NCBI GenBank assembly: GCA_019358935.1 | Contig: JAHHIK010000072.1 | Coordinates: forward strand, 1-41,775 | Origin: Tolypothrix carrinoi HA7290-LM1 | GTDB taxonomy: Bacteria; Cyanobacteriota; Cyanobacteriia; Cyanobacteriales; Nostocaceae | Direction of reading: 5' to 3' | Length of the DNA: 41,775 nucleotides | In this document: positions 34,235-41,601 of the stretch, piece after piece | How positions within the stretch are numbered: position 1 is the stretch's first letter | Layout: each line of letters starts with the position of its first letter | Program-made: the position numbers and the translations under genes | Notes under the pieces: generated by a model | The model's database searches: none | What the model was told of the DNA's origin: nothing | What the model saw: the letters and a program-made list of their open reading frames with translations, nothing else

Positions 34235-34341
34235 TCTCTGTGTCTCTGCGGTTCGTTTTTCAAAAGCCTTTATTTCAAAAATAAAATAAAACTATTAATA
34301 TTGATACTATGAAAATAATGTCAATAGATAGACTTAAAATT

Positions 34342-34659
34342 ATGACAGAATCAACACCAAAACGCTTAGTACGCAGAGGCAGAATATTTCCCGAAATAAC
34401 CATATCACCAGAAGAACTAGCCAAACGTAAAGCCGAAAGAAACGCATTTCATCAACGTTGTCGAGCAATTTTTGAACGAGTGCGTCCCCAATTCATCGAT
34501 AAACACTATGGCTGGTATATTGCTGTTGAACCAGATAGCGGTGATTACTTCATTGATGCAGATATAGAACTAGCAAGCCATAAAGCACGCGATAAGCACC
34601 CAAATGCTGTACACTGTATGTTTTGCCTGAATGAGACTGGAGCCACTGGCACAATATGA
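34342..34659 (+). CDS. Small DUF5678-like protein, copy 1
   Basis: PQFIDKHYGWYIAVEPDSGDYFID...KARDKHP; start set by comparison with copy 2; stop overlaps the protease ATG (ATGA). Confidence 0.8.
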   Translation: MTESTPKRLVRRGRIFPEITISPEELAKRKAERNAFHQRCRAIFERVRPQFIDKHYGWYIAVEPDSGDYFIDADIELASHKARDKHPNAVHCMFCLNETGATGTI

Positions 34660-35018
34660 TACAGGGCATGTTTGGCGATAGAGGGCAGCTATTTTTTGAG
34701 ATTGAATTAATTAGTGTTAATCGGTTCAATCTGCCTGTGGATGCCATGTTGGATACTGGTTTCACAGGCTTTCTGGCTATTAATAAACAAGATTTAGACG
34801 CTCTTAATTGGCAATTTATTCGTGAACAAGAATTGCTCACGGCACAAGGGGAAAGTCTTTTTGAAATCTATTCAGGTAAAATAGTTTTGGATGAACAAGA
34901 GTATGAAATTCCGGTTTTTGCCGGAGATGAAATTATAGAAGTATTGCTGGGTTCAGAGTGGTTAAAAATTCTACCTTTAGTGGTGAATTATCAAGCTGGA
35001 ATATTGACGCTGGGATAA
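34656..35018 (+). CDS. Clan AA (retropepsin-like) aspartic protease, copy 1
   Basis: AMLDTGFTG catalytic motif, flap TAQG, VLLGSEWL. Confidence 0.88.
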   Translation: MIQGMFGDRGQLFFEIELISVNRFNLPVDAMLDTGFTGFLAINKQDLDALNWQFIREQELLTAQGESLFEIYSGKIVLDEQEYEIPVFAGDEIIEVLLGSEWLKILPLVVNYQAGILTLG

Positions 35019-35021
35019 TTA

Positions 35022-35152
35022 TTAGCTAGTTGGTAAGTCGCGGAGAAAATAAAAGCGATCGCTTCTCCAATATGAGCCTTTAATTCGTCCCAAGTAGCCT
35101 GTTAAAGGTGAGGAAAGTTCAATCACTAAGTCATGAACTGTCTCATCTGTTA
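35022..35152 (-). pseudogene. 3'-terminal fragment of a second allele of the DUF1802-like/nuclease gene
   Basis: Reads ..TDETVHDLVIELSSPLTGYLGRIKGSYWRSDRFYFLRDLPTS*, versus HPQEMHEILIELSSPLTGYLGRIKGSDWRSDRFYFLRDLPTS* in the intact gene. Confidence 0.85.
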
Positions 35153-35298
35153 ACACAGAAACAACCTGTATAATTAGTAAGGTGGGCAATGCCGACCTAT
35201 ATATTAATGTAGATAAACTAGCAAATTAATTTATCTAAAAAACTATAGCATTCCTAAATAAGAGCGTAAAACTCTCTTCCTCCTCTTCCTCTGCGTCG

Positions 35299-35387
35299 CG
35301 CCAGTCGCTACAACGGGGGGAACCCCAACGCCAGGTGCCTCAACGGAGGGAACCTCCGCACAGCACTGGCTCCGCAACGCGCTGGCT
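35299..35387. mobile_element. Nested SDR-type elements, copy 2
   Basis: Same 89-nt sequence as 34146-34234. Confidence 0.75.
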
Positions 35388-35449
35388 TCTCTGTGCCTCT
35401 GCGGTTCGTTTAAAAAATAATTATCCCAACTCATATAGAATTATAAAAT

Positions 35450-35479
35450 CTATTGATACTATGAAAATAATATCAATAG
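35450..35479 (+). promoter_or_regulatory. Operator-like inverted repeat upstream of the small-protein/protease pair
   Basis: CTATTGATA-N12-TATCAATAG, ending 10 nt before the ATG; near-identical at 34299-34326 in copy 1. Confidence 0.5.
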
Positions 35480-35489
35480 GCTTAAAACT

Positions 35490-35807
35490 ATGACAGAATC
35501 AACACCAAAACCTGTGGTACGCAGAGGCAGAATATTTCCCGAAATTACCATATCACCAGAAGAACTAGCCAAACGTAAAGCCGAAAAAGATGCATTTCAT
35601 CAACGTTGTCGAGCAATTTTTGAACGAGTGCGTCCTCAATTCATCGATAAACACTATGGCTGGTATATTGCCGTCGAGCCTGATAGTGGTGATTATTTCA
35701 TTGATGCAGATAATATGCAAGCTCACAAAAAAGCCCGCGAGAAGTATCCAAATGCTGACCACTGCGTTTTCTGCTTGAATGAAACTGGAGCCACTGGCAC
35801 CATATGA
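35490..35807 (+). CDS. Small DUF5678-like protein, copy 2
   Basis: Paralog of 34342-34659; ATGA overlap with the protease gene. Confidence 0.8.
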   Translation: MTESTPKPVVRRGRIFPEITISPEELAKRKAEKDAFHQRCRAIFERVRPQFIDKHYGWYIAVEPDSGDYFIDADNMQAHKKAREKYPNADHCVFCLNETGATGTI

Positions 35808-36166
35808 TACAGGGTACATTTGGTGAGAGGGGGCAGCTATTTTTTGAGATTGAATTAATTACTGCTGATAATGTAAATTTGCCTGTGGATGCGATGTTAG
35901 ATACTGGTTTCACAGGCTTTATTGCAATGAATAAACAAGATTTAGACGGTCTTGATTGGACTTATATTGGTCGAGATGAACTGCGAACCGCACAAGGGGA
36001 AAGTTCTTTTGAAATCTATTTAGGTAAAATAGTTTTGGATGAACAAGAGTATGAAATTCCGGTTTTTGCTGGAGATGAAATTACAGAAGTATTGCTGGGT
36101 TCAGAGTGGTTAAAAATTCTACCTTTGGTAGTGAATTATCAAGCTGGAATATTGACGCTGGGATAA
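35804..36166 (+). CDS. Clan AA (retropepsin-like) aspartic protease, copy 2
   Basis: AMLDTGFTG, TAQG, VLLGSEWL; 120 aa as in copy 1. Confidence 0.88.
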   Translation: MIQGTFGERGQLFFEIELITADNVNLPVDAMLDTGFTGFIAMNKQDLDGLDWTYIGRDELRTAQGESSFEIYLGKIVLDEQEYEIPVFAGDEITEVLLGSEWLKILPLVVNYQAGILTLG

Positions 36167-36169
36167 TTA

Positions 36170-37618
36170 TTAGCTAGTTGGTAAGTCGCGGAGAAAATAA
36201 AAGCGATCGCTTCTCCAATCACTGCCTTTAATTCGTCCCAAGTAGCCTGTTAAAGGTGATGAAAGCTCAATTAATATTTCGTGCATTTCTTGAGGATGTA
36301 ATTTAGTAGATGAAATAGCACTAAATGCACCATGTAGAGAATCAACACTCGCTCTTTCAAATCCGGTCTTTTCTAAATAGTTTTTCACTAATTCGATAAG
36401 TTGCGATCGCAAAGCAATCTGTTTTTCTACTTGATTAATATATTCATCAATTTTATTGTCAATTTGTCCTTGTTCTAAATATTGCTTCAATTCAACTAAA
36501 TTTACAGAACCTGGATATTTTGCTTTTAATTCAACTAGCTTTTGTAAAGTCATAGCATTAATAATACTGATTTTAGATATTTGAGCAGATTGTTTAAGTT
36601 GTTTTGTTGGTTGACCAGGACCGATAATCAACCGAACAGCCATCATATAATTTTCTTGAAGATGTCTTTTGCCAATTCGATCCAATTCCTCAACAGTGCG
36701 ATCGGGAATGCTTTTACCAGCCTTACATTCACAAACGAGGGGATAGGGTTGTGAGCAAAATAAGTCTAAACCTCCTGCACCACCTTTATAGTCTTCCTCA
36801 ACTTTAAATCCTAAAAAATTAAGACTTTGACGAGTAATATTTTCAAAATCTGTCCCAGCTTGATAGTTGCTTTTTTTCTCTTCTAGTTCGATGCTGCGAT
36901 CGCCTAATTTAGCAATATCATTTATCCAAGTTAAATTTGAATCAATTTGCTTGACAAATTGCTCACTACTCCAACCTAAAAAGACTTTGATATCTTGTTC
37001 TAATTGTTTAGCTGCTGGGTTGGTGGTAGCAAGGGAAATTAAAGCACTTTGCAATTTTTCTAATTCAGGATGCAGCGGTTGCTGTAAATTTTGTAACTGG
37101 TGTTTGCGGATGTTGAAGAGGCGATCGCTTAACACCGGATTTACGTCAGAAACAGTTATAGGCTGCGGTAAGGCAATAAACTGGCTATTTCCCTTGACAT
37201 TAACTTTAACTGGTTCAGTTAACTGATAAACTCGCAGGTAAGTAAGAAAAATATTGTGCCGTTGGACAAGTATTTCTTGTAAAGCTTCTGTTGTCCAAAT
37301 TGTTAGGTGTGATAAAGCAGCTAATGATTCTGCATTATCTAGAATTTGGCACTGCTCACACGTTGCCCAGGCTTTAATTAAGAAGGTTTCAGTATTTAGT
37401 TCGGCAAGAGAACTTTGGGCAATAGACAATAAACTTGAGTGATAATACCGCTCAACTTGCAGCACATTTCTTGATGCATCTATTGAGCAAAGAGTAAATT
37501 TACGCCCTGGAGCAATAAATTGTTTCGGTATAGCTAAAATTTCTCGTCCTTGCAATAAAGCCTCAATTTCCGGCGCAGGCAAGCACAAAGCGGTACTAAT
37601 CACAACAGAATTATTCAT
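36170..37618 (-). CDS. DUF1802/ASCH-like domain + PD-(D/E)xK (Mrr-like) restriction endonuclease + C-terminal winged-helix-like domain
   Basis: TALCLPAPEIEALLQGR (ASCH/PUA-like start), FLTYLRVYQL; GTDFENITRQSLNFLGF..GGLDLF..LVCECKAG nuclease motif. Confidence 0.8.
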   Translation of the reverse strand: MNNSVVISTALCLPAPEIEALLQGREILAIPKQFIAPGRKFTLCSIDASRNVLQVERYYHSSLLSIAQSSLAELNTETFLIKAWATCEQCQILDNAESLAALSHLTIWTTEALQEILVQRHNIFLTYLRVYQLTEPVKVNVKGNSQFIALPQPITVSDVNPVLSDRLFNIRKHQLQNLQQPLHPELEKLQSALISLATTNPAAKQLEQDIKVFLGWSSEQFVKQIDSNLTWINDIAKLGDRSIELEEKKSNYQAGTDFENITRQSLNFLGFKVEEDYKGGAGGLDLFCSQPYPLVCECKAGKSIPDRTVEELDRIGKRHLQENYMMAVRLIIGPGQPTKQLKQSAQISKISIINAMTLQKLVELKAKYPGSVNLVELKQYLEQGQIDNKIDEYINQVEKQIALRSQLIELVKNYLEKTGFERASVDSLHGAFSAISSTKLHPQEMHEILIELSSPLTGYLGRIKGSDWRSDRFYFLRDLPTS

Positions 37619-39492
37619 TATTCCTTAAATAAATCCTCTGCACCCACACTTACCACATCCGCAGTTGATGCATTTACCTTAGCGTTTCCACTATCTTCAT
37701 CAATGGCATCTTCAGGAATTTGTCCTGATGGATCGCTGAGAATTTCACGGATTAAATAATTATCTATTGCTATCCGCTTTTGCACAATGAAATCCATGAT
37801 TTCCTCTTCCTTTAACTCATAATCTTCACGAGCTTGCAAAACAAACAGAATGGATAAAAGTGGTTTGATATCTCCACTTTTCAATAATACCCATTCTCCA
37901 CCAAGTTGCGGTGACAACAGTTGACTCAAATACTGTTTTGCTTTAGCAGCATTTTTGCTAACTTGCTTAGAACGAATTAAGCAACCACGAGTTAAATCAA
38001 ACTTTTTGTAGTCGATTAAACGGCTCAATGTCGCCTGAACAATCCTCCCGCCAGATTCTTGTAGAATAGCCACACCAATCTTGACAGGTTTTCCATTTTC
38101 TTTACCAACAATTTTAAAGTCAAGATAGCCTTTGTCTGCTGCTTTTGTTTTAACTTCTGTAATTTCTTCAATTTGTACTTGCTCTACAGTTTGACCAATT
38201 AGTGTAGAAAACCCTAACCTAAGGGCTTCAGCAAGTGTGGCTTTATCCTCCATGTAATCATCTATAGTGTTTTCAAGGGCTGCAAGTTCCTTGTCGTAAA
38301 CAGATTCTACTGGATGTTTTTGCGTTATTGTCAGTTCTGAATCGGTGGGAGCTTTAAAGTTGTCTGCACACCATTTCAAAACTTTTCTGACAATTGGTCT
38401 TTCTTTACCCAGTTCTTTTAGTTTTTCTGCATCAAAGGGATATACTGAATGCGGCGGTGTTAATCCCTTTTCGTCATAAAATTCTTTTAACCACTGAGCA
38501 ACTAAAGTTATAACATCCTCGGAATTGAGATATTTTAATTCGAGAATTTTCTCACCAATTCTATCTACAACTGCTTCAGCATAAGACAATGCTTTTACTT
38601 GGTGAACCCAGGTTTCAGCATACATAGCTGTTAACAAAACACCACTTTTAATGCTGTTATATAAGTCTTTAGCTAAACCAGCAGAAACTTGTGCTTTGGT
38701 AAATCCTGCATCACTACATTCAGGGACATCCAATTCATCAAAACAAACTATTATTGGTTTATAACCACCAATTAAGTCAAGAATTTGACGAACTGTGGAG
38801 AAAGATTCCGCTTCTTTATCTTGAGTACTAAGGTTGGCTAAACCCATTGTATCAGCTTTTGATTGGGGTAAGTTTCTGCCAGACAGCCAGTTGATAGCAA
38901 AGGTTTCATAACCAGGATCGGGAGAAAGCGTCCAGAGAATCGCTGTAAGAATGTCAGGATTTTCAATGTCAGGCTTAATTGCAAGTACTTTATCCCTCAA
39001 CACATCAACAACTTTGGGATTTTTAGCCAAGGCTCCCGGAAACTGATTTACTAGTTGCTGAGGTGTGAAGTTTTTGTCATAAGCTTCATTGACTAAAGCA
39101 GCTGCTAATTCTCGCCACTGACTTACACCTTTGCTACCAATTTGTTTAAGGCTAATTGCTAAAGTTTTTAAGAATTCAGTTTTAATTCGGTTTAAATCTC
39201 CACACTCACTCATGTAGACAAACAAGGCACTTCCATCAGCTTGAACGTGGTGGCGAATTCTACTGATGAGGTGGCTTTTACCTAACCCTTTTTCAGCGGT
39301 GATTGTGATACCAACGACTTGCCGCTTTTTGGTGCGAACTTTCTCAATTGCTTCAAAAACAGCGTCCGAAGCATGAGCATTTAAAGAAGGAACATCGGGA
39401 AAACCTTTTCCCCAAATATCTTGGCTTCTAACTACTAAAGGTCTGTCAAATGGGTTATGGTTTTTGATGGCATTAATTAGGTCATTCGTCAT
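37618..39492 (-). CDS. P-loop (AAA+/Orc-Cdc6-like) ATPase
   Basis: NPF N-terminal motif, Walker A AEKGLGKS, Walker B IVCFDELD, AVVDRI arginine finger, YPF; stop overlaps the downstream ATG (TAATG). Confidence 0.88.
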   Translation of the reverse strand: MTNDLINAIKNHNPFDRPLVVRSQDIWGKGFPDVPSLNAHASDAVFEAIEKVRTKKRQVVGITITAEKGLGKSHLISRIRHHVQADGSALFVYMSECGDLNRIKTEFLKTLAISLKQIGSKGVSQWRELAAALVNEAYDKNFTPQQLVNQFPGALAKNPKVVDVLRDKVLAIKPDIENPDILTAILWTLSPDPGYETFAINWLSGRNLPQSKADTMGLANLSTQDKEAESFSTVRQILDLIGGYKPIIVCFDELDVPECSDAGFTKAQVSAGLAKDLYNSIKSGVLLTAMYAETWVHQVKALSYAEAVVDRIGEKILELKYLNSEDVITLVAQWLKEFYDEKGLTPPHSVYPFDAEKLKELGKERPIVRKVLKWCADNFKAPTDSELTITQKHPVESVYDKELAALENTIDDYMEDKATLAEALRLGFSTLIGQTVEQVQIEEITEVKTKAADKGYLDFKIVGKENGKPVKIGVAILQESGGRIVQATLSRLIDYKKFDLTRGCLIRSKQVSKNAAKAKQYLSQLLSPQLGGEWVLLKSGDIKPLLSILFVLQAREDYELKEEEIMDFIVQKRIAIDNYLIREILSDPSGQIPEDAIDEDSGNAKVNASTADVVSVGAEDLFKE

Positions 39493-39556
39493 GGATTTGG
39501 TGTAAATGTGTGTACGAGGAGCAAACAGAAAATTAGCAAAAATTATACAAATGGGT

Positions 39557-40222
39557 TTATGAGTTTAAACGCTTGGCATAGCAGCGTAATCCACTCACTT
39601 CGGTTGTAATTGAATCTTCAATTTTGGCTGGATCGCTGTCTGGCAAACTACCACCTTGTAGTTGCAAAATGTCCTTTTCTTGCATTTCCAACAGCCACTC
39701 ATTGAAATGTTCACGACTGGTGCGATCGCCTATTTCTCTCCTAATTCGATATATCGGCACTAAATCATTCAGGTTATAATCCCGATTCAGCTTGTCGTAT
39801 ACTTCTAGCGTGACTTTCTCAAACTCGTCGTAAGATTTAATTCCACTCTTTACCCGATCGACTGGTACATTTGCACCAGAAGCACCATCCATTTCACCAA
39901 TCCACCTTACCAACGCATTCGCTGCCCAAGTTCCGACAATAGTGCCTTCAAATTTAAAATCAGCACTTTTCAAACCTTGACTCAGCACCTCTAAACCTTG
40001 AGGAGATTCGAGAGTGTAGCCTTTTTTGGAGATAGCGATCGCTCCTTTTTTCTCCAATTCCGCAAAAATGTCTTGAAAATCTGCTATCTTCTTGTCTTTA
40101 GATTTGATGCGATCGTGAAGTTTACCTTTGTTCACTTCCTGCTTTGCTCCTCCCAATTCCCATAAAGCAAGCAGTAGGCGAGTTTGAGCTTGATTTGTCA
40201 TATTTTGTAACTTTTGTGACAC
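39557..40222 (-). CDS. Hypothetical protein with two winged-helix-like domains
   Basis: RLLLALWELGG..FAELEKKGAI..YTL..GLEVL and LVPIYRIRREIG..FNEWLLEMQEKDILQL; first gene of the operon; start may be ATG at 40201. Confidence 0.75.
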   Translation of the reverse strand: MSQKLQNMTNQAQTRLLLALWELGGAKQEVNKGKLHDRIKSKDKKIADFQDIFAELEKKGAIAISKKGYTLESPQGLEVLSQGLKSADFKFEGTIVGTWAANALVRWIGEMDGASGANVPVDRVKSGIKSYDEFEKVTLEVYDKLNRDYNLNDLVPIYRIRREIGDRTSREHFNEWLLEMQEKDILQLQGGSLPDSDPAKIEDSITTEVSGLRCYAKRLNS

Positions 40223-41172: not shown

Positions 41173-41601
41173 ATGGTAGACGACTTTTTGCGAAAAGCGA
41201 AGGATCTGCTTGTTGGGTCGAACGACGAGCAATATGAGCAAGACACCGATTACCGCGATCGCGAGGTACGTCGATCCAGCGAAGATCCATACGGCGACCC
41301 CGCAGACCAGTACGGTAACGCTATCCCCGCAAGCCAAGACCCCTACGGCGACCCCGCAGACCAATATTACGGCGACGCTATCCCCGCAAGCCAAGACCCC
41401 TACGGCGACCCCGCAGACCAGTATTACGGTAACGCTATCCCCGCAAGCCAAGACCCCTACGGCGACCCCGCAGACCAATATTACGGCGACGCTATCCCCG
41501 CAAGCCAAGACCCCTACGGCGACCCCGCAGACCAATACGGTGATATCCGCCCAGCTAGCGAAGACCCCTACGGCGACCCCGCAGACGAGTATAATCGCTA
41601 A
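41173..41601 (+). CDS. Acidic repeat protein with six DPYGDPAD units
   Basis: AGGAG RBS; 54-57-nt tandem units with synonymous third-position variation, which supports this frame. Confidence 0.82.
   Translation: MVDDFLRKAKDLLVGSNDEQYEQDTDYRDREVRRSSEDPYGDPADQYGNAIPASQDPYGDPADQYYGDAIPASQDPYGDPADQYYGNAIPASQDPYGDPADQYYGDAIPASQDPYGDPADQYGDIRPASEDPYGDPADEYNR

Follow-up and report, generated by a model that had tools for sequence, protein, structure and literature searches.

Organization of the operon

The window analysed here, a stretch of 41,775 nucleotides from contig JAHHIK010000072.1 of the cyanobacterium Tolypothrix carrinoi HA7290-LM1, carries on its minus strand a three-gene operon that is real, conserved and unnamed, and whose parts form a mosaic of exchanged alleles. 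The genes are co-oriented in the order winged-helix (wH) protein, ATPase and nuclease: the first open reading frame (ORF; 39557-40222) encodes a RcaD/All4300-like protein of 221 aa, the second (37618-39492) a protein of 624 aa and the third (36170-37618) a protein of 482 aa. Base 37618 is common to the stop codon TAA of the ATPase gene (37620-37618) and the ATG of the nuclease gene (37618-37616), which thus overlap as TAATG. An original prediction, made by a model from the sequence letters, had pointed to three co-oriented genes coupled at this base and to the lack of a methyltransferase gene among them, and the ORF coordinates and gene contents agree on each count. The homologues nearest by name belong to heterocyst-forming cyanobacteria, e.g. 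Hassallia, Tolypothrix and Nostoc; among the named homologues of the nuclease is one from Nostoc sp. PCC 7120, a model strain that thus carries the operon. Promoter and terminator predictions were no better than those on shuffled sequences (17 vs 15.1 and 7 vs 4.3, respectively), and contigs from one RNA run (0.06 share) span parts of the ATPase and wH genes, an overlap that is unable to show transcription.

The three proteins match no PADLOC model, a search that the original prediction had called for, and no family-level match came from sequence searches of NCBIfam or the PDB. The layout, which that prediction did not recognise as a named system, has nonetheless been predicted in print: Rakesh, Aravind and Krishnan (Nucleic Acids Research 2024; PMC10853773, section 22) describe in one sentence, without experiment, an Orc/Cdc6 ATPase with a fusion of an ASCH domain to a restriction endonuclease (REase) and a DndG-like winged helix-turn-helix (wHTH) protein, propose for it a role against selfish elements and call its ASCH domain modified-DNA-binding. 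No publication was found that treats the trio as a tested system, DUF1802 searches included, in a literature of which most subscription papers were out of reach; the available part of PMC12839542 holds nothing further on it.

Domain architecture of the three proteins

The wH protein is homologous to that of a second operon in the same genome (G000:C49, L083:8116-13786), which encodes a wH protein of 282 aa, an ATPase of 724 aa and a fusion effector of 861 aa. This sister operon, RcaD-RcaG, corresponds to the Orc/CDC6-coupled HerA/FtsK capture system of PMC10853773 and shares with the operon of the window homologous wH and ATPase genes in the same order; its effector, a fusion of a 3'-5' exonuclease, a Cas4-like nuclease and FtsK, differs from the window nuclease. 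It is also present at loci L150-L157, at some of them with two ATPases. Profile comparison by hhalign aligned residues 43-216 of the window wH protein to residues 98-279, i.e. the last two thirds, of the sister protein (probability 97.5%, E 6e-12), and the protein probably comprises two wH domains, as judged from these alignments. Other profile matches were weak (RIO2 and eS10 winged helices, E 0.07-0.4), and the DndG and SspB profiles of PADLOC did not match it.

The AlphaFold2 (AF2) model of the ATPase has a predicted local distance difference test score (pLDDT) of 90. Its AAA+ core (aa 1-385; 38338-39492) matches Cdc6/Orc1 (2qby; Z 14.7, root-mean-square deviation (rmsd) 4.0, 242 residues aligned) and TnsC (9g0f; Z 14.0, rmsd 5.0, 267 aligned), and these folds together with the motifs identify an AAA+ ATPase of the Orc/CDC6 family in the ORC/Cdc6/TnsC clade. 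Residue conservation was counted in 109 de-duplicated intact loci, all of which retain G69, G71 and K72 of Walker A, F251 and D252 of Walker B and R369; R311 is kept in 107, and E253 of Walker B is glutamate in 97 and glutamine in 12. The C-terminal part (37618-38337) is likely an inactive REase fold (about aa 395-590) followed by a low-confidence acidic tail, as suggested by a predicted secondary structure in REase-like order (helix, three strands, helix, strand), by missing catalytic residues (D458 is kept in 46 of the 109 loci, with no ExK) and by PMC10853773; the fold searches with the ATPase model were filled by matches to AAA+ domains and did not cover this part. At its C-terminus the protein has, in 108 of the 109 loci, a short acidic stretch (median 34 aa, 29% D+E) in place of a winged helix. 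The sole long tail, of 192 aa, belongs to the ATPase at L067:4237-6690 and ends in a SeqA-C-like stretch (E 6.6e-5, below the Pfam cut-off). As regards the putative inactive REase, hhalign to the sister-operon ATPase gave E 0.025; the ATPase profile showed no likeness to that of the nuclease.

The nuclease model (pLDDT 88) resolves into three domains. Foldseek gave no match at E <= 0.001, and their fold assignment rests on the VIA second look of the model. Residues 10-174 match Pfam DUF1802 (E 2.7e-32), and the corresponding domain (aa 5-178; 37085-37606) superimposes on the ASCH-fold protein CXorf40A (6kir; Z 9.8, rmsd 3.6, 141 aligned), with Foldseek hits to TRIP4 and a Zymomonas ASCH protein at E 0.005-0.06. 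The nuclease therefore fuses an REase domain to an ASCH fold, in line with the PUA/ASCH assignment of the original prediction. The REase domain (aa 223-398; 36425-36952) is of the PD-(D/E)xK type found in Nt.BspD6I (6qnz; Z 15.1, rmsd 3.1, 169 aligned) and FokI (2fok; Z 14.1, rmsd 3.0, 150 aligned), and its active site is intact: E259, D285, E297 and K299 are invariant in all 109 loci. The motifs that had been read as Walker A/B and as a nuclease signature thus stand. The Mrr_cat family (PF04471) did not match the window nuclease; one of five relatives reached 18.2 bits against a cut-off of 21, and atlas leads remained below 0.9. The protein ends in a Cdc6/ORC-like wH domain (aa 400-482; 36170-36421) that matches the wH of Cdc6 (7jgr_G; Z 10.7, rmsd 1.7, 81 aligned; range over Cdc6/ORC proteins, Z 10.7-11.2). 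By hhalign this domain resembles no other wH of these operons, nor do the profiles of the wH protein and the nuclease resemble each other.

Distribution and genomic neighbourhood

In a sample of 301 genomes across the phylum the ATPase was matched in 52; it is common in filamentous cyanobacteria and present in 25 of the 35 genomes of the family of the window, and none of 165 genomes from eight further families had a match. Among 52 loci from other genomes, a set that leaves out two short contig-end matches, 46 have all three genes adjacent and co-oriented, five have the ATPase alone (distant or fragmentary) and one lies at a contig edge. Scanning species genomes yielded 479 loci, of which 80 were kept, all of them cyanobacterial or unclassified: 67 are intact trios, eight are cut by contig ends and five depart from the pattern, with an ATPase that is split or short, a nuclease that is truncated or doubled, or additional wH-like ORFs. 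The trio is accordingly linked by more than chance, and the original prediction is upheld in that the genes are co-conserved across cyanobacteria.

Within three genes of 132 loci we collected 602 neighbours in 224 clusters, and 196 cluster representatives were scanned with Pfam (24 were scanned separately or plainly housekeeping, three were too long or contained X and one occurred in the window only). Housekeeping genes and small toxin-antitoxin genes make up most of the neighbourhood. A DNA methylase, a type IIG fusion at L076, lies near one of the 132 loci, and a single GmrSD gene was seen, at L049; the linked cognate methyltransferase of classical type I-III restriction-modification is thus lacking, as had been supposed from the operon of the window. 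The neighbour representatives include no conserved transposase gene, and a HerA/FtsK domain is found neither among them nor in the three proteins, only in the unlinked sister operon. Searches of viral contigs (with single-protein patterns) and phages gave no match and those of plasmids one weak match of 24% identity, and the reading of the operon as a mobile element was rejected on these grounds.

The presence of the operon is patchy, with an empty site in genome G162. In same-genus G284, two unrelated genes on the opposite strand, encoding 124 and 222 aa and without Pfam or PADLOC matches, take the place of the stretch from mid-wH gene to mid-ASCH domain (L138:7362-10406). Distant ATPase relatives at L069-L071 stand without a nuclease gene between a membrane-anchored helix-turn-helix-like gene and a vWA gene, and show ordinary use of the octamer HIP1, described below.

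The operon is a mosaic

Within genera the site of the operon is fixed and the alleles are swapped, with alleles found across genera. Distance matrices from 41 intact loci showed that the C-terminal half of the wH protein (wH-C), the ATPase core, the ATPase C-terminal part and the ASCH-fold domain correlate with each other at r 0.78-0.89, and that the cleavage domain correlates with wH-C, ATPase and ASCH at r 0.00-0.06. The N-terminal half of the wH protein (wH-N) follows the host tree (r 0.68 with RpoB) and wH-C goes with the ATPase allele. In nine genomes of one genus, 98-100% identical in RpoB, identity is 87-99% for wH-N, 24-98% for the ATPase core and 40-98% for both the cleavage domain and the terminal wH. 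Approximately unbiased (AU) tests rejected monophyly of this genus for the ATPase (p 3e-58), the REase domain (p 2e-33) and the C-terminal wH (p 0.006), and in the wH-N tree the genus is one clade. ATPase alleles fall into 22 classes. The operon is therefore a mosaic, to judge from these sequence comparisons, in which the cleavage domain swaps independently of the ATPase and the terminal wH is a third swapped module. Given freely changing alleles and no linked methylase, the nuclease cannot act as a standard site-specific enzyme and is either modification-dependent or gated.

HIP1 octamers mark the module boundaries

Six HIP1 octamers lie in the operon of the window, at 36203, 36403, 36896, 37121, 39722 and 40035 (span 36203-40042), and none in its ATPase gene. 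The same pattern holds over the 109 loci, where HIP1 is densest in the wH and nuclease genes (1.9 and 1.7 per kb), less dense in the flanks (0.75) and nearly absent from the ATPase gene (0.02). Of the positions at which the octamer is possible without protein change, flanking ORFs realise 624 of 944 (66%) and the junction regions and wH-N 86-95%, whereas the ATPase realises 5 of 81 and the cleavage core 1 of 20. When each ATPase class is represented by a single locus, the ATPase count becomes 0 of 19, as against 65% for low-GC genes from the genome of the window; the ATPases of sister operons make ordinary use of HIP1. Comparison of 242 close pairs gave 918 switches between near-identical and divergent sequence, of which 644 lie no more than 25 codons from a common HIP1 site (26% expected) and 314 no more than 10 codons (12% expected); in this test the pairs are not independent and cause and effect are not separable.

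HIP1 at the boundaries of swapped parts may help swapping, or HIP1 could simply accumulate in stretches that often recombine with host DNA. According to the abstracts of two recent studies, methylated HIP1 raises integration efficiency and possibly has a role in gene transfer (10.1101/2024.09.10.611283; PMC13756078). It is tempting to think of a combinatorial immune cassette, in which wH-C with the ATPase and the ASCH dock, the cleavage domain and the terminal wH would be shuffled as three modules, methylated HIP1 would steer recombination, selection would keep HIP1 at junctions and purge it inside modules, and each combination would recognise or evade different invaders; as a whole we consider this proposal speculative, and it may well fail. 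Were it true, the operon would represent a kind of ATP-gated defence, a 'split FokI', that has yet to be characterised, and would lend itself to tests of what HIP1 does. The pattern itself offers a defined locus for asking whether HIP1 directs recombination, a question that the same abstracts call open.

Comparison with known systems

A FokI-type cleavage domain has little specificity of its own and needs tethering. In the type IIS restriction enzymes FokI and Nt.BspD6I themselves, which share the cleavage-domain fold with the window nuclease (Z 14-15), the wH recognition domains are part of the same chain and cognate methylases exist; here, by contrast, recognition would fall to a separate chain, with an ATPase in between and no accompanying methylase. 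The PUA-superfamily type IV enzymes MspJI and VcaM4I, and DpnI, also combine a nuclease with a PUA-fold domain or a C-terminal wH and lack a methylase, but to our knowledge they act without an ORC-type ATPase, and the fused ASCH domain of the operon is degenerate. Mechanically, the nearest analogue is Tn7, where TnsD/TniQ, TnsC and TnsA are selector, AAA+ adaptor and FokI-like nuclease; the adaptor has the same fold as the ATPase, and the operon would resemble TnsD-TnsC-TnsA without the integrase, neither a TnsB-like integrase nor transposon ends having been seen here.

The operon sketched in PMC10853773 agrees with ours in joining an Orc/Cdc6 ATPase, an REase-ASCH fusion and a multi-wH protein without HerA/FtsK. 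Some features differ from that description: a triple wHTH is given there, and the wH protein of the window, with its 221 aa, corresponds to the final two thirds of its sister; the neighbourhoods are called mobile, and the site is fixed here within genera while alleles are exchanged; and the ATPase has no C-terminal wH, a Cdc6-like wH ending the nuclease instead. What the present analysis adds to that work is the assignment of the cleavage domain to the FokI type, the degeneration of the reader, the mosaic of three modules and the pattern of HIP1 sites.

A possible ATP-gated defence and its alternatives

We hold, with confidence somewhat above even, that the operon is an ATP-gated DNA-cutting defence under diversifying selection. 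The wH protein would mark a DNA site at which the ATPase would assemble, and this assembly would recruit and switch on the nuclease, whose cleavage domain, like that of FokI, would have little sequence specificity of its own and whose ASCH-fold domain would serve mainly as a dock on the ATPase. Since the nuclease would be inactive until docked, its alleles could change freely without a protective gene. Invaders would drive allele diversity through escape or inhibitors, and modules would be exchanged whole by homologous recombination in the conserved, HIP1-rich linkers. The trigger might, as a guess, be a structure in invader DNA or a protein-DNA complex that the wH protein and the ATPase sense together. 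Gating by the ATPase is favoured because the trio is conserved as a unit, because assembly on DNA is a property of ATPases with this fold and because the reader motifs have been lost (see below). The predicted folds, the gene linkage, the scarcity of nearby methylases, the allele mosaic, the patchy presence, the invariant catalytic residues and the role proposed in PMC10853773 speak for defence, as do a second, different ATPase copy beside the operon at L146-L149, two nuclease genes in tandem at L227 and the sister operon, in which the same pair of wH protein and ATPase is combined with a different nuclease effector. If it does act in defence, the operon is relevant to how filamentous cyanobacteria resist phages and to why DNA is hard to introduce into them. 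The allele mosaic points to the parts under pressure.

Several points weigh against this interpretation. Joint inheritance of modules can be obtained from physical linkage alone, and related genomes are not independent. When seven deep-clade loci are removed, the ATPase-ASCH correlation drops to r 0.48, no higher than RpoB-ASCH at 0.50, so that the docking idea leans on this clade; the ATPase-wH-C correlation stays at 0.68. The neighbours are mostly housekeeping genes and form no defence island, and no PADLOC family matches. The sister genes RcaD and RcaG are described as transcription regulators of light acclimation in the available part of PMC2799420. Finally, for every member of the family a defence role is a prediction.

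A type IV restriction enzyme, in which the ASCH-fold domain would flip and read a modified base and the ATPase would only translocate or loop DNA in the manner of McrB for McrC, is close to what the original prediction proposed. It would account for the ASCH fold and for the missing linked methylase; PUA-fold readers are common in such enzymes, according to the available part of PMC4738411, the domain is called modified-DNA-binding in PMC10853773 and the SeqA-C-like tail at L067 fits as well. The stand-alone form of DUF1802, however, carries KEW and RKGGI motifs in all 11 aligned proteins, and both are absent from the fused domain, where just 13 of 171 positions are 95% conserved. The reader role is further weakened in that the fused domain partly travels with the ATPase and varies with it rather than with its own nuclease domain. 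Moreover, a role of ASCH as a reader of N6-methyladenine (6mA) lacks experimental confirmation (PMC11037411), and the ATPase fold best matches ORC/Cdc6/TnsC. We regard a type IV enzyme as unlikely, but as a serious alternative. The genome of the window has both forms of DUF1802; its stand-alone gene (G000:C93, L137:6641-7231) is highly conserved across cyanobacteria, and this form is present in the Deinococcus and Synechococcus controls too.

Alternatively, genome-wide methylation of HIP1 or GATC by unlinked methylases could be a self mark, and the complex would cut DNA that does not bear it. This would explain the missing linked methylase and suits the confinement of the kept loci to cyanobacterial or unclassified genomes, the SeqA-like tail at L067 and the recognition of HIP1 by two methylases in most cyanobacteria, as stated in the abstract of PMC13756078. 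A fixed mark, however, leaves the 22 ATPase allele classes unexplained, and in Synechococcus PCC 7002, taken irrespective of operon carriage, HIP1 is outside any native restriction system according to the abstract of 10.1101/2024.09.10.611283; we think a methylation mark quite improbable. Phosphorothioate as the mark is not required, and dependence on it was rejected, as genomes G047 and G089 have intact trios without a dndC match; the three proteins had no PADLOC match to DndFGH or SspFGH, the ssp genes themselves not being searched. Co-occurrence of the operon with dndD is uninformative because that gene is near-universal (92 of 101 over the cut-off). The genome of the window has dndD and a weaker dndD-like gene about 8 kb apart (G000:C51:15772-25918), a pair seen in most relatives.

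The operon could also be a housekeeping DNA machine without a defence role, either a transcription regulator like RcaD/RcaG or a repair complex. It is chromosomal and lies among housekeeping genes, and, in the part of PMC2799420 available, an All4300-like protein of 279 aa, 5335, was pulled down on promoter DNA from a Lyngbya majuscula lysate; its best match is a Nostoc punctiforme protein of 217 aa, the size of P0318. 5335 is likely the orthologue of the wH protein, which would mean that one member of the operon is made in growing cells; at the Moorena locus L220 the wH protein has 278 aa. GST-5335, however, gave no shift and the protein 7968 bound control DNA as well, as reported in the same part of that paper. 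Allele identity down to 24% within one genus, loss or breakage of the operon in close relatives and the invariant nuclease active site also oppose a housekeeping role, to which we give little credence. The TnsC/MuB fold matches and the trans-genus alleles could also point to a selfish toxin-antidote cassette or to a domesticated Tn7-like targeting module, maintained because cells in which it is lost or mismatched are killed; this is very improbable in view of the clean loss in G162, the partial replacement in G284, the want of a conserved transposase gene nearby and the virus, phage and plasmid searches.

Additional features of the window

The operon is flanked by a lipoprotein-like gene on one side and, on the other, by a duplicated pair of genes for a small protein and a clan AA aspartic protease. 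The pair forms part of a tandem duplication (34328-35123 and 35476-36271, identical at 715 of 790 bases) that, over 34328-36271, also takes in the end of the nuclease gene, whose final 43 codons recur as a stray copy on the minus strand (35025-35153). Several further copies of the pair are present in the genome, and it lies downstream of the operon in many relatives. At 41173-41601 the window encodes a small protein built from repeated DPYGDPADQY-like units.

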